NCBI GenBank assembly: GCA_963768165.1
Contig: CAVYHJ010000002.1
Span: forward strand, 195,283 to 259,282
Direction: 5' to 3'
DNA: 64,000 nucleotides
DNA from: an uncultured bacterium
GTDB taxonomy: Bacteria > UBP4 > UBA4092
The notes below the pieces were generated by a model. The model had not been told where the DNA came from and ran no database searches. It worked only from the letters and a program-made list of their open reading frames with translations. Each line of letters starts with the position of its first letter. The stretch's first letter is position 1. The translations under genes were made by a program, and so were the position numbers. This document shows positions 14,895-45,337 of this stretch, in pieces.

Positions 14895-14976
14895 TATAAT
14901 TGGTACTCCTTTTTCCTCTAGAATGTATGGCGTCGGGAAAAAGAAGAGCGTTTATTCCCGACGCAGTTTTATTCTG

Positions 14977-15783: not shown

Positions 15784-16064
15784 TACTCCTTTTTCCCAAA
15801 GAATGAGAGAGTTTTTTATTACCGATAGCATACTCCCTTCTAGAACCCAGAGTCAAGTTAAAGAGTGGAAGGAACGGGAGAAACGGAGAATGGGCGAGAG
15901 AGCGAAATAGAATCAGGAATGAAGGAAAAGGTCAAATATGTTACCTGCTCCAGCAAAGAGATACCCATTATTTTGCCTATAAATAGACAGGTAGAAAAGA
16001 GTTGAAAAGATAACAGATTGTGCTATAATTTTTCTTAGTCAAAAACGGTCGGGAGGACACTTCG

Positions 16065-18039: not shown

Positions 18040-18562
18040 TCAATCTTTCTCACTGAATTGTCTTTATTATAACATATAGGTAGGTTATTTTGATTTAAAC
18101 GAATAGTTCCGAATAGCCAGAGAACTTACACTGATAAAAGATTCCAGCAGGTTTTTTTAACTATATCGGAAATGAGTATATTTCTCTTTCCCGATAAAGA
18201 GAAATTGCCATACATTGCGGTTAATAACAGTCAGTTTTCCCTTAATTAAAAACGGTTTTTAAGAATCAGAATTTATTTTTCTGTGACAAATCATTTAACA
18301 AAATACTGAAACGAGTCATGGTTGACAAAGAAAAATACTTACTATATATTGTAGTCCTGGCTAGGATTAATTAGTAACTGTTGAAAATCCTGTTTCTATA
18401 GATGAACCAATTAAAACTTGTGTATGCTCATGCAATACTTTTTCTCCAAAAGAAAAAAGTAAACCATTTATTTCATTGGAGATAAGTATTTGCCATTTGG
18501 TAAATATTATTCTATTATCATTAGTATATACCTAGGATTTATATGGTTTGTCTATAGCTTAA

Positions 18563-20090
18563 ATGCCAACATTTCTAGCAAGGAATATTCCGGTAAGTAC
18601 AAAATATAAAAATCACTTAGAAAAGGACCATAATATATTTATTCCGTTGTTGTTCTTTGTGATTTATTGTTTCAGTTTTATATTTCACGATCCAATCACA
18701 CACATTTATTATGGGTATTGGCAATTATTACCTTTGGATGCTTTACTTCAACATCCCATTAGTAGTTTACTCCTGATTCACTCACAACCTCCCCTGCTTA
18801 ATCTACTGTTTTATATCGTACATATTCCATCCATGATATGGGAAATCAATCCTCAATTCACCGCAACGCTTTTATTTTTCTTTATCTCCCTATTCTCGAT
18901 ATATGTCTATTACAACCTGGTTTTTCTTATCACAAAAAATAAAGTATGTGGCATGGCCGTTCTTTCCCTCATTCTACTCAATCCCGGTTTCTCCTTTTTT
19001 CAGGGGTATTTCTTTTATCAGAATATGGACTTTTTAGTCAGTGGTATCCTGGTCTATCAAGCCTGTCTGTGGGCACTAAAACCGGATTTATACCGATTTG
19101 GAGGCGTGGTCATAGTGTATACTACAATGGTTTATTTACGGAGTTTATGGCATCCTCTTTTCGGATTTTTTATCGTTCTCTTTTTACCCCTAATGATTTA
19201 TCCAAAAATGAATAAAAAAATAATCCAAAAGCATTGGATCTATGGCAGTCTCCTTTTTATTTTATTAATCAGTCCTTGGATGTTAAAAAACCTTATTTTG
19301 TTTAACACCCCTTCTTTTTCTTCCTGGCTGGGTGGAAACCTTGGTGGTCAACGATTTTCGAAATTCATTCTTTCCAATAATCCAGCCGATGCTTTTGATA
19401 ACTCTTTGGTTAAACAATATTATTCCGACTGGCAATTAAAGATTTTAATGAATTATCCTGCTACTGCAGACATCGAAAAAAATTTAATTTCTGCCCCCCC
19501 CCTACATGAAGAGAAATTTAAATCACTACGCCCTTCCTGCAATCTGTAATGAGGATATGAAAGAGCGAATATCCTATTATAGAGAACACCCCTACCAATA
19601 TATACAGAGAATCTATTCAAATTTTGTCTACATGGATCTTCCCCCATATATTAATTCGTATACACAGGATTCAACAACAGGTTGGTATGGCGGTTTGCAA
19701 CGGATGGGAACTTATGGATATTGGTATGATGTCATATTTTATGGAAGTTGGTTTAGAAATTTTATAGTCATACATACCCTGGATTTTGTATACAGACCCA
19801 GCCTGTTTATCTTCATACTGATCCTGCTGTTATTACTCAGCATTCGGTTGGCAATCAATCAAAAGACAGAACCTATCCAGAGAATATTTTATTTCTTGTC
19901 ATCGTTAATGTTTCTCTGGTTTCTTGCCATGATTTTACTGATCGATGGAAAGGAAAGTAACCGAATGAGATGGGATATGGAAGGGATCTATCTATCAATC
20001 CTGGTTGAACGATGTTACGCCCTCTATCAATCTTTGAGGATACATAAACCGAATAATAAAAAACGGGTCCAAGTCAAACGCAGTAAATAA
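18563..20090 (+). pseudogene. Polytopic membrane protein split by frameshift at a 9-C homopolymer
   Basis: ORFs 18563..19549 and 19506..20090 overlap in different frames at the C9 tract 19494-19502; removing one C fuses them (...ISAPPYMKRNLNHY...). Confidence 0.5.
19494..19502. repeat. Poly-C homopolymer tract (9 nt)
   Basis: CCCCCCCCC at the junction of the two overlapping ORFs. Confidence 0.9.
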
Positions 20091-22083: not shown

Positions 22084-22326
22084 ATCAAATTCCTTTTCAT
22101 TTCCAAACGCAGATTATAGCATTAGTGGAGGGCGGCGGGAATAGTAAAGTGTCGAGTCGGGAGACTCGACCTATCGGATAGAGGAATGGTCAAAACCAAT
22201 TTCTTACGAATATCATAAGTCGTATTGATTTAAACAAAAAGTAAGCGTAATATAATGGGGTTCAGACCATGGAAATTATCATTCACCCACGATATGATAC
22301 CGGGGATTTATTCAGGAGGGCAGGTC

Positions 22327-22956
22327 ATGAAACGCTTGATTTGTTTGTTAACAATCACTCTTAGTATAGGTTTTGTAACGCAATTATGTTGGGGTTACTC
22401 CTCATCGGAATTGATAATTCCGCCATCCGCCAGAGTACCCGGGTCTGTATCCAGCCAAGATACTTCCGCAAATACGCCCCCAATACGAAACTATGTTAGC
22501 GAACTTCCATCTTCTTTTAAAAAGGATGCCAATGAAATTTATAATTTTTCCGTTAAAAGTCTGGAAGGTAAATATACCCACATGGGGGACTATAAAGGGA
22601 AAGTCATCGTGGTCAATTTCTGGGAATCCACCTGTTATCCAAGTTATCTGGAATTGTTCAAAATCGAAAGCTTGGCTAATTTTGACAAGAGAAAAGAAGT
22701 GGTCATTATATGTGTCGCCGAGGATGACGAGAAACTCCTACTTCATTATAAGGACAAAATCCCCCAGCTTTCATTCCCCATCTTTACTTATAACCAGTTT
22801 GATATACCGGATGCGCTGGAACATGAATATGTCCCCACCACGTTTATCATCAACCAGAACGGTAAAATTATACTGGCAGAATCCGGTATCATTGAAGGTT
22901 TCCAACTATGGGAAGAAATCCAAAAACTCCTTCCCCACAAACCAAACACCAAGTAA
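22327..22956 (+). CDS. Thioredoxin-fold (TlpA/redoxin-like) protein with single-Cys site
   Basis: Start set at MKRLICLL (AGGAGGG RBS); VVNFWESTCYPS aligns with the WxxWCxxC redoxin site but the second Cys is Ser. Confidence 0.5.
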   Translation: MKRLICLLTITLSIGFVTQLCWGYSSSELIIPPSARVPGSVSSQDTSANTPPIRNYVSELPSSFKKDANEIYNFSVKSLEGKYTHMGDYKGKVIVVNFWESTCYPSYLELFKIESLANFDKRKEVVIICVAEDDEKLLLHYKDKIPQLSFPIFTYNQFDIPDALEHEYVPTTFIINQNGKIILAESGIIEGFQLWEEIQKLLPHKPNTK

Positions 22957-23022: not shown

Positions 23023-25002
23023 CTATTTGGTTTTGGCGGAGTAGTTGTAGATAGCCAGCGAGATGACGCTGAGGAAGGATTCGAGGAGATAGTCCTGTTC
23101 TTGCGAGAGGAACTGAGAATCCTGCGGACGACCGATAGCGAGGACGCCGACAATATCGTTTTTGACGTTCAAGGGGATAAAGCGCCACGCGGAAGAGGAG
23201 AGAGTCTGGGTCTCCCGACCGGCAAGTTCCTTGTGCTCAAATACCCATAAAGCGATAGTCATTTCGTGACTATTAAATTTCACAGAGTCACCGGTTTGGG
23301 AGCGGATAGTGAGTTTACCGGTTTTGTCGGGAAGCAGGAGCGCCGAGTCACAGGCGAACATTTCGGAAATGTCCGAACTGATTCTATCGAGCAAATCAAT
23401 AAACCCGATAGCGTGATACAAATCCTGGCTGAATTCATTGAGCAACGAAATGTACCGCACCTGGGTGCGGGAAGATTCCGATTGCCGTTTGAGACGGTCG
23501 GCAAGGAGACTTGTCACAATGCCGACTAAAAACATGACAAAGAACGTGGGCAGATAACTCATATCGCTGACTGTAAAAGTGAAAATCGGCGGAACAAAAA
23601 AGAAATCGAAACAAAGCACGCTCAACAGGGATGCGACCAGACCGCCGATGAGTCCGCGATAAATCCCTGACAGAATCACGGGAATGATGAATAAAAGGGC
23701 AACATTCGTGAGACCGATGTAAGAATGAAGAGGAAAGCAAATGAGAGTGGTTGCGCCCACGATGGCAAGGCTCATAAGATAGGAACGCCAATCAAGAACG
23801 AGATTGCTTCGTCGCTGCGCTCCTCGCAATGACAAAGGTTGTGGTGACGATTCGCCACCGACTACCAAGACTTGAATAGGATTGCTTTTATCAATAATCT
23901 GGTTCAAGAGTGACCCGCGTATCATTCTACGAAACCGGGATTGGCCGGAGAAACCAACAATAATCAACGAGGCATTTTTTGAACGGGCAAACCGCACGAC
24001 TTCATCGGCAGGCTGGTTGCTGGAAAGACGGACAATTTTCCCGCCCAATTCTTTGGCGAGATTAAAATTCTTCTCCAACTGTTTAGCCCTTTGCGGGTCG
24101 AGCGTAGTTTGCACCTGTGGTTCGACATAGACCGCAAACCAATCGGCTTTTAAATCTTCCGCCAACCGATGTGCCACGCGGACGGGTTGTTCGGACAAGG
24201 GACTCGGACTGATACATACCATAATCCGGGTGCCGACGGGCCAGGGACCTTTAATGCCCTGCAATTGCATGTAAGAGAGCATGGCATCGTCCACGTGCTT
24301 GGCGGTATAGCGCAGGGCTAATTCGCGGAGCGCGAGCAAAGTGCCTTCTTTAAAATAATTCTGGGAGGCGAGTTTCGCCATATTGGCCATGTAGACTTTA
24401 CCTTCGGTTAAGCGCTGGAGAAGTTCTTCCACGGGAAGGTCTACGAGAGCAATTTTATCCGCCAGTTCCAGAATGCGGTCGGGGACGGTTTCCTTCACTT
24501 CAATTTTGGTAATTTGATAAATAATGTCATTGACACTTTCAATATGCTGGATGTTCAAGGTGGTGTAGACACTGATACCGTTATTGAGGAGTTCTTCAAT
24601 ATCTTGAAACCGTTTTACATGGCGTGACCCGGGGACATTGGTATGCGCCAATTCATCCACCAGAACATATTTGGGTTTGCGCTTAAGAATATAGTCCAGG
24701 TTAAACTCATCCAAGACCATACCCTGATATTCTATTTTCAGGAGGGGAGAACGTTCCAATCCAAAAATCAACTGTTCGGTTTCGGCACGACCATGGGTTT
24801 CGACAATGCCGATAATGATATCTTCGCCCTTTTGTTTGATCGCCTGGGCTTCCTGCAACATGCGGTAGGTCTTGCCGACACCGGCCACGTACCCTAAGAA
24901 TATTTTAAGAAATCCCCGGGTGCGATGCTGCTGTTCCTGTTCTTTATTAAACAGGTTCAGCAGTTGATCCGGATCGGGGCGATTTTGATTCTGTTCAACC
25001 AT
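23023..25002 (-). CDS. kdpD: KdpD sensor protein lacking histidine-kinase domains
   Basis: N-terminal P-loop GVGKTY, USP-like region, 4-TM block and GAF-like C-terminus; ends at 659 aa with no H-box or HATPase motifs; directly downstream of kdpC. Confidence 0.75.
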   Translation of the reverse strand: MVEQNQNRPDPDQLLNLFNKEQEQQHRTRGFLKIFLGYVAGVGKTYRMLQEAQAIKQKGEDIIIGIVETHGRAETEQLIFGLERSPLLKIEYQGMVLDEFNLDYILKRKPKYVLVDELAHTNVPGSRHVKRFQDIEELLNNGISVYTTLNIQHIESVNDIIYQITKIEVKETVPDRILELADKIALVDLPVEELLQRLTEGKVYMANMAKLASQNYFKEGTLLALRELALRYTAKHVDDAMLSYMQLQGIKGPWPVGTRIMVCISPSPLSEQPVRVAHRLAEDLKADWFAVYVEPQVQTTLDPQRAKQLEKNFNLAKELGGKIVRLSSNQPADEVVRFARSKNASLIIVGFSGQSRFRRMIRGSLLNQIIDKSNPIQVLVVGGESSPQPLSLRGAQRRSNLVLDWRSYLMSLAIVGATTLICFPLHSYIGLTNVALLFIIPVILSGIYRGLIGGLVASLLSVLCFDFFFVPPIFTFTVSDMSYLPTFFVMFLVGIVTSLLADRLKRQSESSRTQVRYISLLNEFSQDLYHAIGFIDLLDRISSDISEMFACDSALLLPDKTGKLTIRSQTGDSVKFNSHEMTIALWVFEHKELAGRETQTLSSSAWRFIPLNVKNDIVGVLAIGRPQDSQFLSQEQDYLLESFLSVISLAIYNYSAKTK

Positions 25003-25012
25003 TGATTTTCAC

Positions 25013-25579
25013 TTATTTTTTAAGGACATCCAGTGCCATATTCAATTTTAATACATTGACAACCGGATCGCCGAACAACCCCAAGAGAGGTTTTTCGGTA
25101 TATTTTTGAACCAAATCAGTTACGACATCATCCTGCAAACTGCGAGATTTTGCAACTCTTGGCACTTGAAGCAAGGCGGCATCCAGACTTATATGGGGAT
25201 CGAGACCGCTGGCCGAGGATGTGACCAAGTCCACGGGAACAGGCGCATCGGGTGGCAAATTATTTTCCGCACGAACCGCGCGTGCCGTGGAATCAATCTG
25301 GCTAATCAATTTCTGGTTGGTGGGACCGAAATTGGTCGCATTGGAATTGGTGGCATCGAAATTAGCCGCCGAGGGACGCCCGTGGAAATATTCGGGTTTG
25401 GTGAAGGATTGTTCTATTAATTCGGAACCAACAACCTTGTTGTTCACTGTCGCCAGACTGCCATTGGCCTTGTGTGGGAAAAGTATCTGTGCGATTCCGG
25501 TCATTGCCAACGGGTATATCAACCCGGTGAGAATGGTGAATACGATTAAACTCAAGATGGAAATTTTTAACTGTTTCAT
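25013..25579 (-). CDS. kdpC: K+-transporting ATPase subunit KdpC (operon 1)
   Basis: 188 aa, N-terminal TM, conserved GRPSAANFD and SGLDPHIS segments. Confidence 0.85.
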   Translation of the reverse strand: MKQLKISILSLIVFTILTGLIYPLAMTGIAQILFPHKANGSLATVNNKVVGSELIEQSFTKPEYFHGRPSAANFDATNSNATNFGPTNQKLISQIDSTARAVRAENNLPPDAPVPVDLVTSSASGLDPHISLDAALLQVPRVAKSRSLQDDVVTDLVQKYTEKPLLGLFGDPVVNVLKLNMALDVLKK

Positions 25580-25596
25580 TTGTATAATCTCCTTTT

Positions 25597-25686
25597 TTAA
25601 TAACTTCTACCCGACTTTAGTCGAGGGTTCGGGGACTTCAGTCCCAATTTAAGGGCTAAAGCCCTAAGAACCGTGGACTAAAGTCC
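25597..25686. repeat. Interspersed double-hairpin palindromic repeat (family R1), copy 3
   Basis: CTTCTACCCGACTTTAGTCGAGGG..GGACTTCAGTCC..GGGCTAAAGCCC..GGACTAAAGTCCCGTAGAAGAA between kdpC and kdpB. Confidence 0.6.
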
Positions 25687-25702
25687 CGTAGAAGAAAATA
25701 TG

Positions 25703-27739
25703 TTATGCCCAACCTAATACAACGATGAGCATGTCAATTAGTTTGATACCGATGAAGGGAAGAAGCACTCCGCCCAACCCATATACCAGTAAATTCATTT
25801 TCAAGAACGAGGAAACGGAAACGGCACGTAATTTGACGCCCCTCAATGCCAACGGGATTAAGAACAAAATAATAATCGCGTTGAAAATGACGGCGGACAA
25901 AATCGCACTCCCAGGATTATTTAACCTCATCACATTCAGAATATTCAACTGCGGATAAGCGACCGCAAACATTGCCGGAACGATGGCGAAATATTTCGAG
26001 ACATCGTTGGCAATACTAAAAGTAGTAAGCGCGCCACGCGTGATAAGGATTTGTTTTCCGACTTCCACAATATCGAGAAGTTTCGTGGGATTGGAATCCA
26101 AATCAATCATATTGGATGCTTCCCGCGCCACCTGCGTGCCTGCATTCATAGCGACCGCGACATCGGCTTGCGCGAGAGCGGGTGCGTCATTAGTCCCGTC
26201 TCCAATCATCGCGACAAGGTTACCGTCCTCTTGTGCCTTGCGAATTAATGCCAATTTGGTTTCGGGTTTGGCCTGAGCAACGAAATCATCCAGCCCGGCT
26301 TCCGCGGCAATCGAAGCAGCGGTGAGCGGGTTATCGCCGGTAATCATGGTGGATTTGATACCCATTTCACGGAGTTGCGCGAGACGAGCTTTAATGCCTT
26401 GTTTCAGAACGTCTTTGAGACGAATCACGCCAAGAACTCTTTTCCCGTCAGAAACGACCAAAGGCGTATTACCTTGTTTGGCGAACCCTTCCACGATGTC
26501 CTTGACTCCGGCAGGGATTGTGGCATTGGACTGTTTCAGAAATTCTTCAATCGCGTCCAAGGAACCCTTGCGGATTTTTTTGCCATCAATATCAATCCCG
26601 CTCATGCGTGTTTCGGGAGTGAAAGGTACGAACACGGCACCTTCGGGAGCACGGATATCGCTTCCCTTGATACCTTTTTCGGTTTTACAGAGGGTTACAA
26701 TACTTCTGCCTTCGGGAGTTTCATCGGATAGTGAGGATAACAAGGCACAGTCCACCAATTCTGCTTTTTCAACTCCAGCAGAAGGAACCAAATCGGTTGC
26801 CATACGATTGCCGAGAGTGATGGTACCCGTCTTATCGAGCAAGACGATATTGACATCGCCTGCCGCTTCTACCGCACGACCGCTCAGAGCGATGACGTTG
26901 TGTTGTAATAGTCTATCCATCCCTGCGATACCGATAGCGGGAAGTAAACCGCCAATGGTGGTCGGCATGAGGCATACCAAGAGAGAAATCAATATCGGGA
27001 CGGTGGTCGCGATACCCAAATAATTGGCATAGGTGGGCAGGACGATAACGACGATTAGGAACAACACTGTGATGCCGACAAGGAGAATTTCTAAAGCGAT
27101 TTCATTGGGTGTCTTTTGACGTTTCGCGCCTTCGACCATAGAAATCATGCTATCGAGGAATGTCTCACCGGCATTCGCCGTGATACGGATTTTGATATGT
27201 CCCGATAATAGTTTGGTTCCACCAGTCACGCCACTGCGGTCACCACCGGATTCCCGAATCACGGGAGCGGATTCACCAGTGATGGCAGATTCGTCCACAA
27301 GAGCGACGCCTTCGATAATTTCTCCATCACCGGGAATGACTTCCCCTTCAATAACCAGAATCAAATCGCCTTTGCGAAGATCCAAGGCGGATACTTTTTC
27401 TTTCGCTCCACTTTCCAATATTTTAAGAGCAAAGAGTTCGCTGCGTGCTTTCCGCAAAGATTCCGCACGTGCTTTCCCTTGAATTTCCGCCAAGGCTTCC
27501 GAGAAGGTGGCGAAAAGAACGGTCACCCAGAGCCAAAGGGTAATTTGCAAATTAAACCCGAAACTGGCATGATGGGTGATATTGATTACCGTGATGATAG
27601 TGGTAATCACAGCGCCGATTTCAACGACCAACATTACGAGATTGCGCCATAATAAAAAGGGATTTAATTTTTTAATAGCTTCCTGCAATCCCTTGAACAG
27701 AAAGTCCGCTTGAAATATACTTCGTTTCGTTTGTGCCAT
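25703..27739 (-). CDS. kdpB: K+-transporting P-type ATPase subunit KdpB (operon 1)
   Basis: P-type motifs [21 protein letters not shown]; 678 aa. Confidence 0.95.
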
Positions 27740-27806
27740 ATATTATCTCCTTAGAACCACCACCCCCTTCCCCCTCCTTAATTAAGGAGGGGGACTGAGG
27801 GAGTGA

Positions 27807-29507
27807 TTAAAATGTTTTTCCTTGCAACATGAATAAATGTTCCAACACGGGACCGAGGGTGAATGCCGGGAAATAGGTCAATGCGCCGACAATAAAGACT
27901 ACGCAAACCAGCATAGCGACAAATAACCAGCCGGTGGTTGGAAATGTAGCCAAACTGGTAGGAACAATCTTTTTCCTGACCAGTGCTCCGGCAATAGCCA
28001 GTCCTGGAATGAGGGTGGAAAATCGTCCAACCAACATGGTGGCGCCACCGGTTAAATTATAAAACACGGTATTGGCGTTAAGTCCGGCAAACGCGGAACC
28101 GTTATTCCCACCATAGGATAAAAAGGCATATAACACTTCCGACCAACCGTGGGCGGAGGGATTATTCATGCTGGACAATCCGGTGGCGGTAATCATAGCG
28201 AATGCCGCAAAGATTTTAAGAACAATGGGCGCTGCCAAAATTGCAATCACCGTCCAAATCATTTCATAAGGACCAAGTTTCTTGCCAAGATATTCAGGGG
28301 TACGTCCGATCATCAATCCAGCAATAAACATAGTGGCGAAGACATAGAAAAACATTCCGATGAGTCCGACACCCAATCCGCCGAAGATGACTTCCCCAGT
28401 GCATAAGTTAAACATATAGACTAGACCCGTGAGGGGGAGCATACTGTCGTGCATAGAGTTCACGGAGCCGTTGGAAGTGACGGTGGTCATGTGTCCCCAT
28501 GCAGCAGAATTGATAATCCCAAAACGGGCTTCTTTGCCTTCCATATTCCCCCCAACCAGATGCAACTTATCGAAAAAGGGGTTACCCTGGGTTTCGCTAT
28601 AGAATACTACGGCCAAACCTATAATAAATAGGGTTAACATGGAATAAAAGATGGCTTTGCCTTGACGGCTATCGCGTACCATAAAACCAAACATGAACAC
28701 TTGCGCGGTGGAAATGAAGAGAATTGCCATCATTTCAAAAATATTAGACAAGCCAGTGGCATTCTCAAAGGGATGCGCGGAGTTGACGTTGAAGAAACCG
28801 CCGCCATTAGTTCCCAACTGTTTAATGGCAATCTGTGAAGCTGCAGGACCAACGGCAATGGTTTGCGCACCGCCTTCCAATGTCTTTACTACCTCATACG
28901 GATGTAAGGTTTGAACGACACCTTGAGACACCAAAATGAGGGTAAGGATAATGCTCAATGGCAATAATATATATATTACAGAACGGGTCATATCCACCCA
29001 GTAATTGCCTATCTTGTCGGTATCTTTGCGAATAAATCCGCGAATCATGGCGACCATGACTGCCATCCCCATCGCGGGGGTAACGAAATTATGTACCGTG
29101 AGTCCCAGCATTTGGGTGAGATAACTCAGGGTACTTTCCCCGCCATACGCCTGCCAGTTGGTATTGGTGACAAAAGAGATGGCGGTATTTAATGCCAAAT
29201 CCCAACGGACGGCAGCGAATTTTTGCGGATTCAAAGGCAGATGCCCTTGAAGAAGCTGCAATAAAAATAAAGCGGCGAGAAATATTACATTGAACCAGAA
29301 TACCGCCCAGGCATAAGTTTTCCAGTTCATTTCTTCGGATTCATTGACGCCGCAGAGACGGTATATTCCACGCTCAAGAGGTTTTAAGAACCCGCTGAGA
29401 AATGTCCATTCTCCGTTATACACCCGGAACATATATTTCCCTGTCGGGATGGACAGGAAAAACATGATTGCCAAGGCAACAACAACTACAATCATATCTA
29501 TTAACAT
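27807..29507 (-). CDS. kdpA: K+-transporting ATPase subunit KdpA (operon 1)
   Basis: 566-aa polytopic protein with KdpA-typical GTNGGGFF selectivity-filter-like motifs. Confidence 0.9.
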   Translation of the reverse strand: MLIDMIVVVVALAIMFFLSIPTGKYMFRVYNGEWTFLSGFLKPLERGIYRLCGVNESEEMNWKTYAWAVFWFNVIFLAALFLLQLLQGHLPLNPQKFAAVRWDLALNTAISFVTNTNWQAYGGESTLSYLTQMLGLTVHNFVTPAMGMAVMVAMIRGFIRKDTDKIGNYWVDMTRSVIYILLPLSIILTLILVSQGVVQTLHPYEVVKTLEGGAQTIAVGPAASQIAIKQLGTNGGGFFNVNSAHPFENATGLSNIFEMMAILFISTAQVFMFGFMVRDSRQGKAIFYSMLTLFIIGLAVVFYSETQGNPFFDKLHLVGGNMEGKEARFGIINSAAWGHMTTVTSNGSVNSMHDSMLPLTGLVYMFNLCTGEVIFGGLGVGLIGMFFYVFATMFIAGLMIGRTPEYLGKKLGPYEMIWTVIAILAAPIVLKIFAAFAMITATGLSSMNNPSAHGWSEVLYAFLSYGGNNGSAFAGLNANTVFYNLTGGATMLVGRFSTLIPGLAIAGALVRKKIVPTSLATFPTTGWLFVAMLVCVVFIVGALTYFPAFTLGPVLEHLFMLQGKTF

Positions 29508-29737
29508 AAATTTCCTTTCTTTTGTAATTTAGGCTTTTACTTTATACAACAGCCTGAATTTTACTACTATTCAAAAATCAATTCAACTGTTTTCCTTTTA
29601 CATGGTACCCTCCATTAAAAAATTGGCTTTTGAAAATATTAGATTACACTTTTGCTCAATTTAAACAATCTTAAAATTGCAAAGAATTGTGTTACTACAA
29701 CTGATAAATAATAAAAAGAAGTTAGGTGGAGGGTTCA

Positions 29738-29896
29738 TAAATAAAAAACCCACTCACTCTTCCACGCCTACGAGGTTAGCTGACGGGCTCGGGTTGAAAA
29801 GTAACCCTACGCTTTCGCGATTAGCCCCAACTTCCGGTTCCCCCGTATCTTTCGAATTCGGCGAACTTAAGTGGTAATACTGCTATATTTTTCTAC
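29738..29896 (-). promoter_or_regulatory. Candidate c-di-AMP (ydaO/kimA-type) riboswitch leader, copy B
   Basis: Same conserved core as copies A, C, D; internal GNRA-capped hairpin CGC-GAAA-GCG; 3' tail GAGUGAGUGGGUUUUUUAU. Confidence 0.6.
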
Positions 29897-29903
29897 TAGT
29901 ATT

Positions 29904-29932
29904 ATTATCGGATATTTTCAAGAAAATGTCAA
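29904..29932 (-). promoter_or_regulatory. Sigma70-type promoter candidate for leader B
   Basis: Minus-strand TTGACA (29927-29932), 17-nt spacer, GATAAT (29904-29909). Confidence 0.4.
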
Positions 29933-30074
29933 ATTGGAAGGTAAATAACAAGAGGATAACTATCTCATTTGTAATGGAAGTATTTTACTATGGATTATTG
30001 ATATTATTTAACATGTACAATTATTAGAGAGAGTAATTCCTAACTCATTACAATGGGAATATAGCAATTAATTA

Positions 30075-30114
30075 AAAAACAATAGGAATCCTACCTTTTC
30101 AAGGCAGGATTCCT
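30075..30114 (-). terminator. Intrinsic terminator downstream of kdpC (operon 2)
   Basis: Hairpin GGAATCCTGCC/GGTAGGATTCC followed by U-run on the minus-strand transcript. Confidence 0.55.
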
Positions 30115-30140
30115 ACAAAAGCAACCACTTTAGGAATATA

Positions 30141-30716
30141 TTATTTGGCAGAAGATTGAACTTGATCCAATGCGATATTTAACTTCAAGACATTGACGCC
30201 CGGATCACCAAGGAAGCCCAAAGTTCGAGAATCGGTATTTTTCTGGATCAGATCTTGTACCGTTGCCTCATCCATTTTTCGAGCTTTAGCAACCCTTGGA
30301 ACTTGAAATAAGGCAGCCTCCAGGCTTATATGGGGATCCAAACCACTGGCGGACCCTGTGACCAAGTCTACTGGCACTAGTGCATCTGCGGGCAGGTTAT
30401 TTTCCTGTCGAATAACATTCGCAGTAGAATCAATTTGACTAATAAGTTTTTGGTTGGTGGGTCCCAAGTTAGACCCGGTGGAATTCCCACCATCAAAATT
30501 CGCCGGAGATGGCCGCCCATGAAAATACTCCGGTTTGGTAAAAGATTGTTCGATTAATTCAGAACCAACCGTTTTCCCATTCACCTGTATTAGACTGCCA
30601 TTGGCTTTATATGGGAATAAAACCTGACAGATGCCTGTCATCATCAAGGGATAAAATAACCCTGTTAAGATTGAAAAAACTACAAAGGTTGTGATCGATC
30701 TTGTTAAATCTTTCAT
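30141..30716 (-). CDS. kdpC: K+-transporting ATPase subunit KdpC (operon 2)
   Basis: 191 aa, paralog of 25013..25579. Confidence 0.85.
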   Translation of the reverse strand: MKDLTRSITTFVVFSILTGLFYPLMMTGICQVLFPYKANGSLIQVNGKTVGSELIEQSFTKPEYFHGRPSPANFDGGNSTGSNLGPTNQKLISQIDSTANVIRQENNLPADALVPVDLVTGSASGLDPHISLEAALFQVPRVAKARKMDEATVQDLIQKNTDSRTLGFLGDPGVNVLKLNIALDQVQSSAK

Positions 30717-30729
30717 TTTTAGGACCTCC

Positions 30730-32793
30730 TTAAGCCCAACCTAAAGATACAATGAGCATGTCTATGAGTTTAATACCGATAAATGGTAATATCACACCAC
30801 CCAACCCATAAATTAACAAGTTTCTCTTCAAGAAAGCAGAAACTGTAGTGAGTCGTAACTTGACCCCTTTCAATGCCAAAGGAACCAAACAAAGAATGAT
30901 AATGGCATTGAAGATAACAGCAGACAAAATCGCACTGTATGGGTTTGACAACCCCATCACGTTTAATATATTCAACTGTGGATAGGTAATTGCAAACATA
31001 GCCGGTATGATGGCGAAATACTTGGATACATCATTGGCTATGCTGAACGTGGTTAAAGCTCCACGGGTAATGAGAATTTGTTTACCCACTTCAACGATAT
31101 CCAATAGTTTGGTGGGATTGGAATCCAAATCCACCATATTGGAGGCTTCCCGTGCCACTTGAGTTCCGGCATTCATTGCTACCGCTACATCGGCTTGAGC
31201 CAGGGCAGGAGCATCATTGGTCCCATCCCCAATCATAGCGACCAAGTTCCCATCGGACTGATATTTGCGTATCAACTGTAATTTGGTTTCCGGTTTGGCT
31301 TGCGCTACAAAATCATCCAATCCAGCTTCTGCGGCAATAGACGAAGCAGTTAATGGATTGTCACCGGTAATCATAATCGACTTAATCCCCATCTCTCGTA
31401 GTTGTGCCAACCTGGCTTTGATACCTTGCTTTAATACATCTTTTAACCGGATGACCCCTATGATCTTTTTGCTATTTGCTACAACCAAAGGAGTATCGCC
31501 TTGTTTCGCAAATTCTTCGACTTTGTTTCTCACATCACTAGGGATACTGAAATGAGATGGGCGTATAAATTCTTCGATGGCATCAAGCGCTCCTTTTCGA
31601 ATCATTTTTCCATCAATATCTATTCCACTCATCCTGGATTCAGGTGTAAAAGGAACAAAAACCGCACCTTCGGGAGCCCGGATATCACTTCCTCTAATCC
31701 CTTTTTCAGTTTTACACAATGTTACTATGCTTCTTCCTTCCGGTGTTTCATCTGAAAGTGAAGATAATAAAGCGCATTCGGTCATTTCTTTTTTATCTAT
31801 CCCTGCCGCCGGGATCAATTCAGTCGCCATGCGGTTTCCTAGGGTGATCGTCCCGGTCTTATCCAACAGAACCACATTGACATCACCGGAAGCTTCTACG
31901 GCACGACCGCTAAGGGCGATCACATTGTGTTGCAATAATCTATCCATGCCAGCAATACCAATAGCCGGAAGTAATCCTCCGATCGTGGTGGGCATTAAGC
32001 AAACCAATAAGGAGATTAAGATTGGAATGGTAGTAACGATTCCCATATAACTGGCATAAGCGGGAAGGGTTACGACGACAATCACGAACAATACGGTTAT
32101 ACCAATCAGCATGATCTCCAAAGCGATTTCGCCGGGTGTTTTTTGCCGTTTCGCACTTTCCACCATTTTAATCATGCCATCCAGAAATGTTTCTCCAGGA
32201 TTGGCAGTAATTTTGATTTTGACTTTTCCAGAGATTAATTTTGTTCCTCCGGTTACCCCACTCCGGTCTCCTCCAGATTCTCGAATAACCGGAGCTGATT
32301 CTCCTGTTATGGCCGATTCATCGATTAAGGCAACACCTTCAACTATTTCACCATCTCCAGGAATTACATCTCCATCAGCGACTAAAATTATGTCGCCTTT
32401 GCGAAGAGACAGGGCAGATACAGTCTCTATGCTACCATTGTCCAACAATTTTTGGGCAGACAATTCGCTTCTGGCACGGCGTAAAGATTCAGCACGAGCT
32501 TTTCCCTGAATTTCAGCCAAGGCTTCCGAAAAGGTTGAGAAAATAACAGTAAACCACAACCAGAGGGAAATCTGTAAATTAAAGGAGAAACTGGTGTGAT
32601 GGGCAATACTGACGATGGTTACTACAGTAGTAACCATCGCGCCGATCTCCACAACCAGCATGACAATATTTCTCCATAGTGTAAAAGGATTTAATTTTAT
32701 TATGGATTCTTTCAATCCTTGTAACAAGAAATCCGCTTGAAATAGGTTTTGTTTTTTTTGTGTCATATGCAATCTCCTTATGCGTTGGGTCAT
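30730..32793 (-). CDS. kdpB: K+-transporting P-type ATPase subunit KdpB (operon 2)
   Basis: [17 protein letters not shown]; paralog of 25703..27739. Confidence 0.95.
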
Positions 32794-32811
32794 GACATCG
32801 TCATGACTCTA

Positions 32812-34560
32812 CTAAAAAGTTTTTCCTTGCAACATAAATAAATGTTCCAATACAGGTCCTAGTGTAAACGCCGGAAAATACGTTAAGGCACCCACAATGA
32901 ATATTACACAGACTAACATGACAACAAACAACCAACCAGTGGTAGGAAAAGTGGCTGTACTTGTAGGAACAATCTTTTTCTGTACTAGTGAACCGGCAAC
33001 AGCCAGTCCCGGTATTAAGGTGGCGAACCGACCTACTAGTATGGTGACTGATCCTGTGAGGTTATAAAATAAGGTGTTAGCGTTAAGACCCGCAAAAGCA
33101 GAACCATTATTACCACCAAAGGATAAATAGGCATAGAGTATTTCTGACCAGCCATGTGCTGAGGGATTATTTAAGCTGGATAATCCTGTCGGTGTAATAA
33201 TGGCAATCGCTGAAAATATTTTGAGTATGATAGGCGCTGCCAGAATTGCAACCACCGTCCAAATCATTTCATAAACTCCTAATTTTTTACCCAGATACTC
33301 AGGAGTTCGTCCTATCATCAACCCGGCTATGAACATGGTGGTAAATACATAAAACAAAACACCAACCGTTCCTATGCCGACACCGCCGAAAATTACTTCT
33401 CCGGTACCCATAAAGAACATATAAACCAAACCGGTGAGCGGGAGCATACTGTCATGCATGGAATTAATCGAACCATTGGCTGTTCCTGTTACCAATCCTC
33501 CCCACACAGCGGAGTTTATAATCCCACAGCGAGTTTCCTTGCCTTCCATATTCCCGCCCACAACGTGTAATTTAGCAAACAAAGGATTCCCTTGCGTTTC
33601 TGTATATACACAAATGATTAACCCAATCACTAAGAGAATCAACATGGAATAAAAGATGGATCGGCCCTGACGAACATCTTTGACCATATATCCAAAGGTA
33701 AAAACAGGTGCACTGACCAAAAGGATAATCGCCATCATTTCCAAAAACATAGTCAACCCGTTTGGATCTTCAAAAGGATGTGAGGAATTCGTGTTGAAGA
33801 AACCTCCGCCATTGGTACCCAACTGTTTAATAGAAATTTGTGAGGCTACAGGACCCATGGCAATGGTCTGAGACCCGCCTTCCAAAGTTTTCACAGTTAC
33901 ATAAGGATGTAAGTTTTGAATAACACCCTGGGATCCCAATATCAATCCTAAAACAATACTTAATGGAATTAACACGTAAAGAATCGACCGGGTCAAGTCC
34001 ACCCAATAGTTACCAATAAAATTGGTATCTTTGCGTATAAATCCCCGGGTCAGAGCAACCAATACTGCTAAAGCTATGGCAGGAGAGACAAAATTATGCA
34101 CAGTCATACCTAGCATTTGGGTAAGATAACTCATGGTGGTTTCTCCCCCATAAGCCTGCCAGTTGGTATTGGTGATAAAGGAGATAGCTGTATTTAATGC
34201 CAGGTCCCATTTCAACCCCGGCAATTTTTGTGGATTCAGAGGAAGATAACCCTGAACCAGTTGTAAGACAAACAAAGTTATCAAAAAGATAACATTTGAC
34301 CAAACAAATGCCCAAGCATAGGTTTTCCAATTCATCTCCTCATCTTCATTAATGAAACAAACCCGGTAGATTCCTTTTTCCAATGGCCGGAATACCGGGG
34401 AAAGAAATGTTCTTTTCCCTTCGTATACATGAGCCATGAATTTCCCTATTGGGATGGACAGGAGTAATGTAACGATTAAACCAATTGTGACTACAAGTAT
34501 ATCTATCATATTAATTATCCTTTCTTCAAAAGATGGTCTTTCATTAATCTCATTAATCAA
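32812..34560 (-). CDS. kdpA: K+-transporting ATPase subunit KdpA (operon 2)
   Basis: Paralog of 27807..29507; alternative start at 34509 (MIDILVV, GAAAGGA RBS) is plausible. Confidence 0.9.
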   Translation of the reverse strand: MINEINERPSFEERIINMIDILVVTIGLIVTLLLSIPIGKFMAHVYEGKRTFLSPVFRPLEKGIYRVCFINEDEEMNWKTYAWAFVWSNVIFLITLFVLQLVQGYLPLNPQKLPGLKWDLALNTAISFITNTNWQAYGGETTMSYLTQMLGMTVHNFVSPAIALAVLVALTRGFIRKDTNFIGNYWVDLTRSILYVLIPLSIVLGLILGSQGVIQNLHPYVTVKTLEGGSQTIAMGPVASQISIKQLGTNGGGFFNTNSSHPFEDPNGLTMFLEMMAIILLVSAPVFTFGYMVKDVRQGRSIFYSMLILLVIGLIICVYTETQGNPLFAKLHVVGGNMEGKETRCGIINSAVWGGLVTGTANGSINSMHDSMLPLTGLVYMFFMGTGEVIFGGVGIGTVGVLFYVFTTMFIAGLMIGRTPEYLGKKLGVYEMIWTVVAILAAPIILKIFSAIAIITPTGLSSLNNPSAHGWSEILYAYLSFGGNNGSAFAGLNANTLFYNLTGSVTILVGRFATLIPGLAVAGSLVQKKIVPTSTATFPTTGWLFVVMLVCVIFIVGALTYFPAFTLGPVLEHLFMLQGKTF

Positions 34561-34714
34561 CAGTGAAATTAAAATTCTTTTCTAAATGCCAACCCATTGG
34601 ACCGTCATAATTCCTCTTCATCTCCTCCTAAAATTTCTCCTGACGAATCATGGTCACCAGGAGATAGACTATTAAAATCACAGTTATAAAACCTGCAATT
34701 AAATCCCCATAGGC

Positions 34715-34807
34715 TTACTGGTCCTCCAGTTTCTCTAATGCTTTGATACAGACAAAGCAAAGGGCTATAATAATCACAGCTATGGCAATGACTTGCAAAT
34801 CACTCAT
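34715..34807 (-). CDS. kdpF: KdpF-like small hydrophobic peptide (30 aa)
   Basis: MSDLQVIAIAVIIIALCFVCIKALEKLEDQ; AGGAGGG RBS 8 nt upstream; sits between the P-II gene and kdpA; not in the ORF track because it is short. Confidence 0.5.
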   Translation of the reverse strand: MSDLQVIAIAVIIIALCFVCIKALEKLEDQ

Positions 34808-34819
34808 GCAATTTCCCTC

Positions 34820-35179
34820 CTACAAAAATGAAACTGCGCATTCATCCGTTTCTCCGGTACGAATACGAACGGCTCTTTCGATTGGAAACACATAAATTCT
34901 GTCATTGGAGACTTTGCCATTACGCGCGGCAAACATCATGGTTTCCACAATCCGGTCGGTTTGTTCTCGGGGAACAACCACTTCAACTTTCAATTTGGGC
35001 AGAAAATCCATAATATACTCCACTCCCCGATAAACTTCTTTATGCCCTTTTTCCGTCCCACAGACTTGAACTTCTGTCACGGTGATGCCTTGAACTCCAA
35101 GGGCCTGAAGCGCGTCTTTCACATCATCCAACTTATACGGTTTAATGATGCATTCAATTTTGTTTAACATATTTAACAT
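34820..35179 (-). CDS. P-II (GlnB/GlnK-like) signal-transduction protein, first gene of kdp operon 2
   Basis: KIECIIKPYKLDDVKDAL...GITVTEV...EVYRGVEY...FLPKLKVEVVVP...RIRTGE aligns with GlnB; T-loop and GDGKIF-like B-loop are diverged; AGGAGG RBS. Confidence 0.75.
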   Translation of the reverse strand: MLNMLNKIECIIKPYKLDDVKDALQALGVQGITVTEVQVCGTEKGHKEVYRGVEYIMDFLPKLKVEVVVPREQTDRIVETMMFAARNGKVSNDRIYVFPIERAVRIRTGETDECAVSFL

Positions 35180-35427
35180 GTTTCTTTAACCTCCTATGTA
35201 GCAAGTTAATCTCGATTCAAATATTTTTTAATTAGCAAAGTGCGGAGCCGGAAACTTAAGGAGGAAACCGGCTCCGCGATTAGCCCATATAACACAATTC
35301 AAAAATATGGGTTAACTTTTAAATTCTAATTACATCATCCGATACATGTATTTGGACTTAAACCAAAATTAACGTCATGTATCTATAACGATGAATCAAT
35401 TATTTAGGAAGTTAATGGGGTGGGGTT

Positions 35428-35590
35428 TCAATAAAAAACCCACTCACTCTTCCACGCCTGCGAGGTTAGCTGACGGGCTCGGGTTGAAAAGTAACCCTAC
35501 ACCTTGCGGTGATTCGCCCCAACTTTCGGTTCCCCCGCCTTTTTCAAGCTCGGCGAACTTAAGTGGTACTATTAAAATTCTATGTTATTT
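35428..35590 (-). promoter_or_regulatory. Candidate c-di-AMP (ydaO/kimA-type) riboswitch leader, copy C
   Basis: Conserved core; internal hairpin CACC-GCAA-GGUG covaries with GCGC-GCAA-GCGC (D), CGC-GAAA-GCG (B) and CGCG-GAAA-CGCG (A). Confidence 0.6.
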
Positions 35591-35760
35591 TACTTATATA
35601 AAAATAACGCATATCCCATACCAGTTATAATGAATTCTAAAGGTTTTCAACAACTCAAATATTTTCAATATTTTACAATTAAATCTGTAAAAACCATTCG
35701 GTAAACTTATGACATAAATGTCATTTAGAACTGCGAAACATTGTCATAATTATGACATTT

Positions 35761-35976
35761 TTAGAAACAGTTATGTTTTTTTATGTTCAAGTTATGGATC
35801 ACCTTTAATTGGCTATTTGAGTTATTTTTGTTTTTGGCACACTTAGTTAATACCACCCCACCTTGAGGGTGAATTGCTTTATCGGAGTTATAAAGCATAT
35901 CCTGCAAATCCATAATTTGATCCCTCATAATTCGGATCATATAATCTTCCTGTAACTCGTAATGGGCATGGATCAT
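35761..35976 (-). CDS. Small helical protein, paralog b
   Basis: 71 aa; AAGGAG RBS; shares an RDQIMDLQDML / RLQIMELQRFL segment with the next gene. Confidence 0.4.
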   Translation of the reverse strand: MIHAHYELQEDYMIRIMRDQIMDLQDMLYNSDKAIHPQGGVVLTKCAKNKNNSNSQLKVIHNLNIKKHNCF

Positions 35977-36001
35977 AGGATTCTCCTTAGTCTTTATTGC
36001 T

Positions 36002-36220
36002 TTAGTACATCAGGAACTTTTGACGGAGTTCCTGGCGCAATTTTTTTAATTGCAATTCGATATTACTTAATGTTTCGACGCCCAATTCGCCATCCTTTTG
36101 AAAACCGTGATTATGTTCCAGCGCCTTTAGAAATCTCTGCAATTCCATAATCTGGAGGCGTAATATACTCGCTCTGAAATCTTTCATTCGACTCATATTT
36201 ATGCCTATTTGAACTCTCAT
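36002..36220 (-). CDS. Small helical protein, paralog a
   Basis: 72 aa; start overlaps the stop of the upstream P-II gene (ATGA). Confidence 0.4.
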   Translation of the reverse strand: MRVQIGINMSRMKDFRASILRLQIMELQRFLKALEHNHGFQKDGELGVETLSNIELQLKKLRQELRQKFLMY

Positions 36221-36558
36221 ACAGCGCTTTCAGACAGTTCTCCAGTTCGAATCCGAACAGCCATATCAATGGGAATCACAATAATCTTAATGTTGGAGAT
36301 ATGATTATTACGCAAGGTTGAAGTAATCGTATCTACAGCCCTGGAGACCATTTCTTCAGGGAGCACTAACTCGATTTTCACCTTAAGTAAATAATCAACG
36401 TTGAACTCTACTCCACGATAAACTTCAGTAGGTTTAATTTCTCGATTAGAAACTTTAACCTCCGTGGCCGCCAATCCGTGAATACCAATATCAAGGAGGG
36501 CTTCTTTCACTTCCTCCACTAGACTGGGTTTGATAATGCACTCGATTTTTTGTAACAT
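36217..36558 (-). CDS. Divergent P-II-like protein (paralog 2)
   Basis: MLQKIECIIKP...ATEVKV...EVYRGVEF...KVKIELVLP...RIRTGE; GlnB-like fold signature with altered T-loop. Confidence 0.6.
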   Translation of the reverse strand: MLQKIECIIKPSLVEEVKEALLDIGIHGLAATEVKVSNREIKPTEVYRGVEFNVDYLLKVKIELVLPEEMVSRAVDTITSTLRNNHISNIKIIVIPIDMAVRIRTGELSESAV

Positions 36559-36686
36559 GGTTATTTACCTCCTCATAAATTTTTTATTTTGTGTTCTCAA
36601 TCGTTTTCATTTCATTGGGACGCCGGATTGGGTGATGTGAATCCGGCGCCCATTAATCCCCCAATAAATATAGTGGATAGCTTGTA

Positions 36687-37028
36687 CTAAGCCGCTTTCG
36701 GATACCATTTTTGGGGATATTGTTCACTTACAACCATTACCGGGACCACATAAAAGTTTCCCTTTGTTTTACCATCAACACAAATAATACGAGTGATGGT
36801 CTCAATCACCCTGTTTACCAGATGTTGGGAAACGATAGTTTCGATTTTGGTGTATGCCTGGAACTCCAACTTGTATTGGATACCCCTATAGGATAAGGTC
36901 GGGCTATTAACCGGATCATACACTTTGGCATCAGAAAGTGTAATCTCATCAATACCCATACCCTTTAGGGCTTCAGTGACTCCACCCAATTTATAGGATT
37001 TGATGGTGCATTCGATTTTTTGAAACAT
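36687..37028 (-). CDS. Divergent P-II-like protein (paralog 3)
   Basis: MFQKIECTIKSYKL...SYRGIQY...TKIETIVS; weaker GlnB-like pattern, C-terminal RxR motif absent. Confidence 0.5.
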   Translation of the reverse strand: MFQKIECTIKSYKLGGVTEALKGMGIDEITLSDAKVYDPVNSPTLSYRGIQYKLEFQAYTKIETIVSQHLVNRVIETITRIICVDGKTKGNFYVVPVMVVSEQYPQKWYPKAA

Positions 37029-37049
37029 GTTACGAACCTCCTTTAAGGT

Positions 37050-37304
37050 TTAATTGATGAATTTGTTTAATTTTTTGTGATATTCAATTGATTTATTATG
37101 TTTCTGAAAATAAGCTTGTACCGTAATCACATAAATGCCACAAACCAATATGGAAAGGATAAAAAACCCCAGAAAAAAACACTGGTCGGCATTGAACCCT
37201 AAAAATGACCAAGGCTGGCTTTGAGCAACAGTATCTGTACTCATCTCACTCCATACTTTTTGTACGAGAGGAGCAATAGCTTGAATTGTATAATTAAAAG
37301 TCAT
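37050..37304 (-). CDS. Small membrane protein
   Basis: 84 aa with one TM segment; between the M23 peptidase and P-II paralog 3. Confidence 0.35.
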   Translation of the reverse strand: MTFNYTIQAIAPLVQKVWSEMSTDTVAQSQPWSFLGFNADQCFFLGFFILSILVCGIYVITVQAYFQKHNKSIEYHKKLNKFIN

Positions 37305-37363
37305 CGTTGAAACTCCTTATAACGTCATTTCATTGGAGGACTCTAAAAATCCATCCAAAAGAA

Positions 37364-37912
37364 TTAAAGTAAATATTTCATAGGATTCACAGGTACTCCA
37401 TTTAGCCGAATTTCAAAATGGACATGCGGTCCTGTGGCAAGTCCGGTACTGCCCACCAAGGCAATGACCTGTCCGCGTTCCACCCCTTGACCCACTTGGA
37501 CTAGAACACTGGAACAATGCCCATATAAAGTAATAAAATCATTGTCATGTTGGATAATGACGCATTTCCCTAAAAGCCCATGCCATCCGGCACCTACCAC
37601 ACGCCCGGATTGCGATGCGCAAATAATGGTTCCATGCTCTGCGGCAATATCTATTCCACTATGAAACCGGATTCCCCCCTCGATAGGATGATGGCGATAA
37701 CCAAACCCAGACGTTATAAGCCCATCTACCGGCCAGACAAAACCAAGTTTTTCATCAGGCACGGAACCGTTAAAATATTGATTGACATTCCTATTATTCA
37801 TCTCAGGTGCCTGCGCATAACTCCAATTGGCGATAATTCCAGGTATCACCAAAAGCAACATAATACCTGTCATCCGTTTTTTATAGAGTTGTTTCCATAA
37901 CCGTTTCATCAT
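37364..37912 (-). CDS. Secreted M23 family metallopeptidase
   Basis: HxxxD-type HSGIDIA and HVHFE motifs; start set at MMKRLW (AGGAG RBS, signal peptide) rather than the ORF-track start 38023. Confidence 0.8.
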   Translation of the reverse strand: MMKRLWKQLYKKRMTGIMLLLVIPGIIANWSYAQAPEMNNRNVNQYFNGSVPDEKLGFVWPVDGLITSGFGYRHHPIEGGIRFHSGIDIAAEHGTIICASQSGRVVGAGWHGLLGKCVIIQHDNDFITLYGHCSSVLVQVGQGVERGQVIALVGSTGLATGPHVHFEIRLNGVPVNPMKYLL

Positions 37913-38097
37913 TTTTCTCCTAACTTTTTGACGAGCAGAGCCGGACTGGTGGCAATCCGACCCTGCTCTAACCCCGCTCATACAATTCAAAATACGGGAT
38001 ATCTTTAAATCCTTAAAAAACACCTATAAGGATTATTTCCAATACATACTGTACAAAAAATGATTAAATTGGTTTAGGAAGTAAAATGGGAGGGTTA

Positions 38098-38261
38098 TAA
38101 ATAAAAAACCCACTCACTCTTCCACGCCTGCGAGGTTAGCTGACGGGCTCGGGTTGAAAAGTAACCCGGCGCTTGCGCGCTTCGCCCCTACTTCTTGGTT
38201 CCCCCGCCTCTTACGAGCTCGGCGAACTTAAGTGGTGCTAAGTTCTTGATTTAATTTTCTA
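38098..38261 (-). promoter_or_regulatory. Candidate c-di-AMP (ydaO/kimA-type) riboswitch leader, copy D
   Basis: Conserved core with GCGC-GCAA-GCGC hairpin; 3' tail GAGUGAGUGGGUUUUUUAU; M23 peptidase gene downstream. Confidence 0.6.
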
Positions 38262-45272: not shown

Positions 45273-45337
45273 TTATCATAACCTACAATGAAAAATAAAA
45301 TACACATAAACCAAATTAGAAAGGGGGGGAATAATTA

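Follow-up and report, generated by a model that had tools for sequence, protein, structure and literature searches.

Two head-to-tail sets of genes for the potassium (K+) pump Kdp lie on the minus strand of contig CAVYHJ010000002.1 (assembly GCA_963768165.1), from an uncultured bacterium of the UBP4 lineage, within the 64-kb stretch analysed here, hereafter the window. Each set is preceded by a riboswitch of the cyclic di-adenosine monophosphate (c-di-AMP) class, and a kdpD-like gene without the histidine-kinase half follows the second of them. Read along the minus strand, the order is riboswitch RS2, a P-II gene, an open reading frame (ORF) of 30 amino acids (aa), a KdpF-like frame, kdpA2B2C2, a terminator, a promoter-like site, riboswitch RS1, kdpA1B1C1 and kdpD. 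All KdpA, KdpB and KdpC proteins gave full-length Pfam matches and both sets keep the gene order A-B-C, which bears out the two complete kdpABC sets described by an earlier note made from the letters of this DNA. In set 1, kdpA1 (27807-29507) encodes 566 aa (Pfam KdpA, 758.6 bits), kdpB1 (25703-27739) 678 aa with the E1-E2_ATPase and Hydrolase domains, and kdpC1 (25013-25579) 188 aa (Pfam KdpC, 244.4 bits); the kdpD-like gene (23023-25002) starts 10 nt 3' of kdpC1. In set 2, kdpA2 (32812-34509) encodes 565 aa from its ATG, within an ORF that reaches up to a TTG at 34560, and matches KdpA over its full length (730.3 bits); kdpB2 (30730-32793) encodes 687 aa, or 678 aa from a second Met at 32766, with the same two Pfam domains, and kdpC2 (30141-30716) encodes 191 aa (241.7 bits). 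An intrinsic terminator with a 16-bp stem, a 3-nt loop and the T-run TGTTTTTTAA is located after kdpC2 (30116-30072), in agreement with the separating terminator placed earlier at 30075-30114. Past it, a sigma-70-like site for operon 1 (29932-29904, minus strand, TTGACA-N17-GATAAT) was assigned by consensus match only, at 11 of 12 positions, and the same consensus scan found no promoter-like site before operon 2.

Each operon has a leader of its own, as had been noticed before, and both leaders contain a high-scoring c-di-AMP riboswitch (Rfam RF00379, ydaO/yuaA, gathering score 38 bits). RS2 (35440-35565, minus strand, 101 bits) heads P-II–kdpF–kdpA2B2C2 and RS1 (29750-29873, minus strand, 94 bits) heads kdpA1B1C1-kdpD, both spanning the whole covariance model (positions 1-134). 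The minus strand of the window carries two more: RS3 (38110-38234, 92 bits), located before an M23 peptidase gene and two P-II-like genes, and RS4 (11090-11216), before the gene of a 777-aa APC-family permease. RS1, RS2 and RS3 are three copies of one leader within 8.5 kb. Beyond the aptamer, their alignment shows a common 5' flank and a common post-aptamer segment, GGGTTTTTTATT..ACCC.CCC..TAACTTCC, that are absent from RS4 and from the riboswitches of two relatives (loci L081 and L082), and the three copies share exact repeats of 30-68 nt. As both flank and post-aptamer segment are shared, the three neighbouring units are headed by copies of one leader that were made within this genome. The closing helix of the aptamer, CCACUUA/UGAGUGG, is conserved across the three copies with a U6 tract directly 3', and the 3' strand of this helix has an alternative partner in a conserved downstream segment. 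From the riboswitch family and the U6 tract, RS1-3 are predicted to work as OFF switches.

Some further elements were observed in the leaders. At 29580-29605 (minus strand), the kdpA1 leader carries a GGAGG followed by ATG TAA, that is, a start-stop mini-ORF; the counterpart in the closest relative (L083, positions 800-830) reads GGAGGAATAAATGTAA, such that the element is conserved. In the RS2 leader, a perfect 10-bp GC-rich hairpin, GCGGAGCCGG...CCGGCTCCGC, is located about 160 nt 3' of the aptamer (region 35242-35277, minus strand). Upstream of RS2 (35700-35760, minus strand) there are two AT-rich palindromes, ATGTCATAATTATGACAT and ATGACATTTATGTCAT, which could be protein-binding sites. Neither the GC hairpin nor the palindrome ATGACATTTATGTCAT has a second copy in the window.

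The 659-aa KdpD consists of KdpD_N (residues 29-237), Usp (259-381), DUF4118 with four transmembrane (TM) segments (408-513) and GAF_3 (537-653), and Pfam found neither HisKA nor HATPase_c in it. The NCBIfam KdpD model is matched at positions 2-642 of 895, up to the GAF/DHp boundary, and the only sequence matches in the PDB are to the KdpD N-domain (2r8r), the TM domain (2ksf) and the GAF domain (4qpr); the claim that this protein ends past the GAF region with no kinase domains therefore stands. A frameshift hiding a full-length kdpD, the artefact that could have undone that claim, was ruled out. The convergent redoxin gene (22255-22956, plus strand) ends 66 nt past the kdpD stop and thus leaves no room for a frameshifted kinase, and 120 of the 120 best database homologs have the same end point. 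These homologs, many of them from methanogens, are 645-792 aa long and share the domain set, with a kinase in none, so the architecture is that of a family and not of a truncation. Leaving aside its own small clade, the closest homologs are those of methanogens (Methanobacterium, Methanomethylovorans and Methanolobus; about 50% identity for KdpD and 60% for KdpA), where kdpABC is likewise followed by a kinase-less kdpD; the shared gene order suggests that the entire operon was transferred between domains. An NCBI model for a "KdpD-like non-kinase potassium sensor" already exists (NF038185, KdpD_non_kinase). It describes an N-terminal-only KdpD of about 373 aa, and the window protein, with its additional TM and GAF domains, scores 360.8 bits against it, under the 550-bit cut-off.

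The N-terminal domain retains the motifs of a described serine kinase. The N-domain of KdpD has been described as an atypical serine kinase that phosphorylates Ser162 of KdpB and inactivates the pump; both Walker motifs, A and B, and an Arg are required for this phosphorylation, whereas deletion of DHp/CA does not abolish it (Silberberg, 2024; PMC11018627). In the window protein, Walker A reads GYVAGVGKT at residue 37 (G-x5-GKT), Walker B reads VDELAH at residue 115, and the adenine-coordinating Arg is kept within LLQRL at residue 194. The alignment to 2r8r has an E value of 1e-71, and, as in 2r8r, the aromatic position after GKT is occupied by Tyr instead of Trp. The description of this KdpD as "sensor-only" is thus outdated, as the motifs of the serine kinase are intact. 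The earlier note had also pointed to the binding of c-di-AMP by a Usp domain of KdpD in Staphylococcus. The c-di-AMP-binding motif of S. aureus KdpD is (A/G/C)-x-S-x-S-x2-N plus Tyr271 (PMC8214093; PMC4686210), and the corresponding residues here are C-I-S-P-S-P-L-S, in which C-x-S-x-S is kept and Ser replaces Asn249, with the final Tyr kept within WFAVY. The two Ser of C-x-S-x-S are less than 90% conserved within the family, and the full E. coli-type motif RxxxR-x8-WxAVY is also present in the domain. With the S. aureus motif thus kept only in part, c-di-AMP is no more than a possible ligand of this Usp domain.

As for the canonical partner of KdpD, no OmpR-type KdpE was found when the window's 62 non-overlapping ORFs with a length of 70 aa or more were scanned with Pfam, as the earlier note had stated. 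The sole two-component pair of the window is formed by a HAMP-PAS kinase (42092-43705) and a sigma-54 NtrC-type regulator (43686-45071), both on the plus strand in a region (42092-46662) that continues with two genes that carry prepilin N-methylation motifs. This pair looks like a PilS/PilR-type unit unrelated to kdp.

Judged from their sequences, both pumps are intact, and strong purifying selection acts on each. The proteins of the two sets are 75% (KdpA), 82% (KdpB) and 70% (KdpC) identical, with a nucleotide identity of about 70% (29% differ). Identity at four-fold sites is 0.29-0.35 for KdpA and KdpB, near saturation, and 0.45 for KdpC (n=58), compared with 0.51-0.52 for set 1 against the L083 ortholog. 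The ratio of non-synonymous to synonymous substitutions (dN/dS) between the sets is 0.06-0.10, with dS saturated. DKTGT (with the phospho-Asp), TGES and GDGTND each occur once in KdpB1 and once in KdpB2, and the TGES loop with its flanks, 16 residues, is identical in the two. The low dN/dS and the presence of all catalytic motifs in both KdpB proteins thus argue that selection has kept both copies. In a neighbour-joining tree, KdpA2 falls inside a clade (100% bootstrap) that also holds KdpA1, L083, L081 and three sequences from metagenomes, and outside all the other members of that clade (79% bootstrap). The earlier description of the operons as tandem duplicates holds in the sense of an old paralogy but not of a recent duplication, which is ruled out by the synonymous saturation, the KdpA tree and the relative L083. 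That set 2 was acquired recently from some sampled donor was likewise rejected: among 5.8 billion clusters, no protein was closer to KdpA2 than KdpA1 is. Sequence divergence and tree placement indicate that set 2 is an old paralog, or a xenolog from within the same bacterial group.

The closest relative, L083, whose KdpD is 91% identical, has the order small ORF, small ORF, P-II, kdpA, kdpB, kdpC, kdpD. Its positions 22-321 correspond to window 36197-35898 (small ORFs), 428-771 to 35174-34831 (P-II) and 809-6963 to 29603-23525 (set 1 and kdpD), so the window has two extra segments: 724 nt with RS2 before the P-II gene, and 5.2 kb between the P-II gene and kdpA1 that hold kdpF, set 2, the terminator, the promoter and RS1. 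P-II and kdpA are thus directly adjacent in L083, and in the window set 2 sits between them. As set 2 predates the split from L083, it was either lost in L083 or gained in the window lineage from an unsampled relative.

The KdpF of set 2 has an unusual configuration. The 28 codons at 34628-34714 (minus strand) match Pfam Potass_KdpF with 26.9 bits (cut-off 21.2) and TIGR02115 with 17.9 bits, under its cut-off, and have no in-frame canonical start codon. The kdpF-like ORF of the earlier note was the hydrophobic 30-aa ORF immediately upstream (34715-34807, minus strand), also called by an independent gene caller in L089, a contig from an independent short-read assembly; Pfam gives no Potass_KdpF match to it, and kdpF had therefore been mislocated. 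The statement that only operon 2 has a kdpF-like ORF and a P-II gene otherwise agrees with the sequence, as the P-II gene is at 34820-35179 and no frame of the set 1 leader contains a KdpF. At 34699-34714 (minus strand), a Shine-Dalgarno GGAGGA is followed by an ATG in the +1 frame, reading ATG GGG ATT TAA; were the G-run at 34705-34708 longer by a single G, a normal 27-aa KdpF (MGDLIAG...) would result. The KdpF region of L089 is identical, with the same four Gs at 34705-34708. The start of KdpF could be explained by a real frameshift, by ribosomal slippage or by a non-canonical start.

The first gene after RS2 (34820-35179, minus strand) encodes a divergent P-II protein of 119 aa (Pfam P-II, 85.5 bits), about 60% identical to annotated GlnB proteins and scoring 135.9 and 123.1 bits against the NCBIfam equivalogs, under their cut-offs of 202 and 181. 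The base of its T-loop is GTEKG where the canonical sequence is GRQKG, and its B-loop is SNDR where the canonical sequence is GDGK; its only two close relatives share this pattern, with GTEKG or GSEKG for GRQKG and SNDR for GDGK. As GRQKG (R38, Q39) and GDGK are replaced, the ATP- and 2-oxoglutarate-binding residues are changed in this protein. Two more P-II-like genes, increasingly degenerate (36687-37028 and 36217-36558), belong to the unit headed by RS3 (35761-38234, minus strand). This unit has a strong TTGACA/TATAAT promoter-like site upstream of RS3, the M23 peptidase gene (Pfam, 37364-38023), an 84-aa membrane ORF 3' of it, and two small helical ORFs (36002-36220 and 35761-35976), all on the minus strand. 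Three P-II paralogs, counting the kdp-linked one, are thus located under copies of one riboswitch leader. From the arrangement, the divergent P-II gene is predicted to share its transcript with kdp, a linkage that we saw in this lineage alone: none of the 84 other kdpD loci had a P-II gene in the flanks fetched around kdpD, which reached up to 10 kb, and no link between P-II and Kdp was found in the literature, in a full-text search that was not exhaustive. It is conceivable, albeit doubtful, that this protein belongs to a new subfamily that regulates Kdp or c-di-AMP/K+ signalling by direct binding, by analogy with GlnK-AmtB and SbtB-SbtA. In favour of this idea are the loss of the canonical ATP and 2-oxoglutarate ligands, the predicted single message with kdpFABC under a c-di-AMP riboswitch, and the joining of P-II to the kdpABCD operon in L083; the two degenerate paralogs of the RS3 unit would then be part of the same circuit.

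The association of riboswitch and kinase-less KdpD is not restricted to the window. We surveyed about 90 kdpD loci, including 80 species-representative loci, and checked about 25 of those with a full-length KdpD for the riboswitch. A riboswitch before kdpA together with a kinase-less KdpD_N-Usp-DUF4118-GAF protein was found in three relatives (L081, L082 and L088), in a Ca. Auribacterota locus (L005) and in a Ca. Omnitrophota locus (L025), and in 0 of the approximately 25 checked full-length-KdpD loci was there a riboswitch before kdpA. Across the survey, the riboswitch upstream of kdpA occurred only with a kinase-less KdpD.

Taken together, these data make it probable that this is a c-di-AMP-governed K+-uptake locus in which two paralogous KdpFABC P-type ATPases are controlled in transcription by riboswitches and in activity by the serine kinase of KdpD. 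The riboswitch class is an OFF switch, which in B. thuringiensis terminates kdp transcription in the presence of a truncated KdpD and no KdpE (Wang, 2019; PMC6488665). When K+ is ample and c-di-AMP rises, the ligand would close the aptamer, and the ligand-stabilised closing helix, followed by U6, may serve as the terminator stem, such that transcription halts before kdp; at low c-di-AMP, both operons would be read through. KdpD would not control transcription but would act as a membrane K+ sensor coupled to the atypical serine kinase, with the TGES serine of KdpB as its target, and a single KdpD could inactivate the two pumps once they are in the membrane. As the TGES region is identical in KdpB1 and KdpB2, it is plausible that one KdpD acts on both, and the retained TM and GAF domains make K+ itself the likely signal. 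Regulation through the riboswitch and KdpD rather than KdpDE had been proposed earlier; the riboswitches, the kinase-less KdpD and the lack of KdpE in the window agree with it, and the part that changes is the role of KdpD as a sensor only.

Several observations weigh against this interpretation. The expression platform is unlike the textbook hairpin-plus-U terminator, the KdpF-like frame of set 2 lacks an in-frame canonical start, and the riboswitch is absent on the 6963-nt contig of L083. A kinase-less KdpD occurs without a riboswitch in L091 and in the archaeal L092 (Methanomethylovorans). Besides, the visible sequence is 64 kb of a genome, and a KdpE or a separate kinase is possible elsewhere in it.

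This last point also favours a split two-component control, in which an unlinked kinase and regulator would activate kdp as in Deinococcus, Anabaena and Alicyclobacillus, with the riboswitch as a secondary brake. Such systems, with a truncated KdpD 3' of the pump and a separate two-component system, have been described (PMC11018627; PMC5716572), and in L092 a PAS-HisKA-HATPase gene is located immediately 5' of kdpA. However, the described systems carry TM and GAF on the separate kinase chain, whereas here they are on the KdpD chain; the window has no OmpR-type regulator, and its only two-component pair is of the NtrC type and adjoins pilin-like genes. Moreover, riboswitch and KdpDE were mutually exclusive in a published survey (PMC6488665), with which our sample of loci agrees. 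We therefore regard split control as unlikely.

Alternatively, only set 1 and kdpD might work, set 2 being a silent or decaying copy like the non-induced kdp1 of Anabaena L-31. The missing in-frame canonical start of its kdpF, the lack of a kdpD of its own and its absence from L083 would fit, as would the case of the cyanobacteria, which have two kdp operons but induce only one when K+ is limiting (PMC5716572). On the other hand, kdpA2, kdpB2 and kdpC2 are full-length with complete catalytic motifs, a riboswitch, ribosome-binding sites and a terminator belong to set 2 alone, and a dN/dS this low at saturated dS requires long-term purifying selection on both copies. KdpF, for its part, is dispensable in vivo in E. 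coli, which also weighs against a silent set 2. Hence, decay of set 2 seems quite improbable.

That the tandem arrangement is a mis-join at the repeated riboswitch leaders is highly improbable: although RS1-3 share exact repeats and two short-read contigs (run ERR11523654, k=31; L089, and L090, which begins in RS1 and carries kdpA1) break exactly inside them, ordinary reads are longer than these repeats, the source contig measures 1.26 Mb, the sets differ too much in nucleotides to be strain variants, the only alternative linear path would need three simultaneous wrong joins, and L089 independently links the 3' part of RS2, P-II, kdpF, set 2, the terminator, the promoter and the 5' part of RS1 with 100% identity to window 35459-29781.

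The c-di-AMP-governed locus proposed here is a variant of described Kdp regulation and not a new kind of system: known parts are newly combined. As in B. thuringiensis BMB171, a ydaO-class riboswitch is located in the kdp leader, a kinase-less KdpD lies 3' of kdpC and there is no KdpE (in the window, none nearby). However, the BMB171 KdpD is a 365-aa protein with KdpD_N and Usp only, whereas the window protein keeps TM and GAF, and the locus described here comprises two pumps and two riboswitches; the published survey found the arrangement in 12 species, all Bacillales (PMC6488665), and here there are relatives in metagenome-assembled genomes of Auribacterota and Omnitrophota. Kinase-less KdpD versions occur mostly in species without KdpE, and the DHpCA-truncated version has the same KdpD-Usp-TM-GAF domains without DHp/CA and without KdpE (none nearby in the window); serine-kinase inhibition of KdpB was proposed as its sole role, as it is here (PMC11018627). 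That version was reported from Campylobacterota and Archaea, where transcriptional control is perhaps superfluous (PMC11018627). The window and five related bacterial loci, by contrast, pair it with a riboswitch, so transcriptional control would be kept by other means. In Anabaena sp. L-31 and PCC 7120, according to the account of Ballal and Apte (2005) given in PMC5716572, there are also two kdpABC sets, with a truncated kdpD on one; unlike in the window, the sets are at separate loci, KdpD is N-terminal-only, the two-component system is separate, and that account has no riboswitch. With the E. coli kdpFABC-kdpDE system, the locus shares the order kdpA-B-C-D and the homologous KdpD N-domain, TM and GAF, but it lacks DHp/CA and a nearby KdpE and has an RNA-based transcriptional switch instead. 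The novelty is modest: a kinase-less KdpD that retains TM and GAF is paired with a riboswitch outside Bacillota, one riboswitch leader is present in three copies within 8.5 kb, and a P-II gene is part of a kdp operon. The two adjacent pumps also belong to the new combination.

Elsewhere in the window, the gene after RS4 encodes the 777-aa permease (AA_permease_2 by Pfam; region 8663-11216, minus strand). Its identity as a KimA-type K+ transporter was considered and set aside, as NCBIfam gave no hit to the protein and no sequence in the PDB matched it at E<0.001; it remains an APC-family permease. Two adjacent ankyrin-repeat proteins of 232 and 284 aa are encoded at 14196-15831 (minus strand), and the ORFs of a low-GC stretch at 18001-20000 (34% versus about 42%) have no Pfam hits. 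Three tandem GH44 glycoside hydrolase paralogs of 561, 808 and 828 aa are located at 48952-57274 (minus strand) and adjoin a DDE transposase at 56015-57274; He_PIG Ig-like domains are present in two of the three.

Current models of Kdp regulation are not overturned by this locus. Rather, riboswitch-only transcriptional control of Kdp would now extend beyond Bacillales to candidate phyla, in company with a kinase-less KdpD that retains TM and GAF, and one KdpD serving two pumps would offer a natural case to test the action of the serine kinase in trans. If functional, the linkage of P-II would connect signalling proteins of the nitrogen/energy type with K+ uptake.

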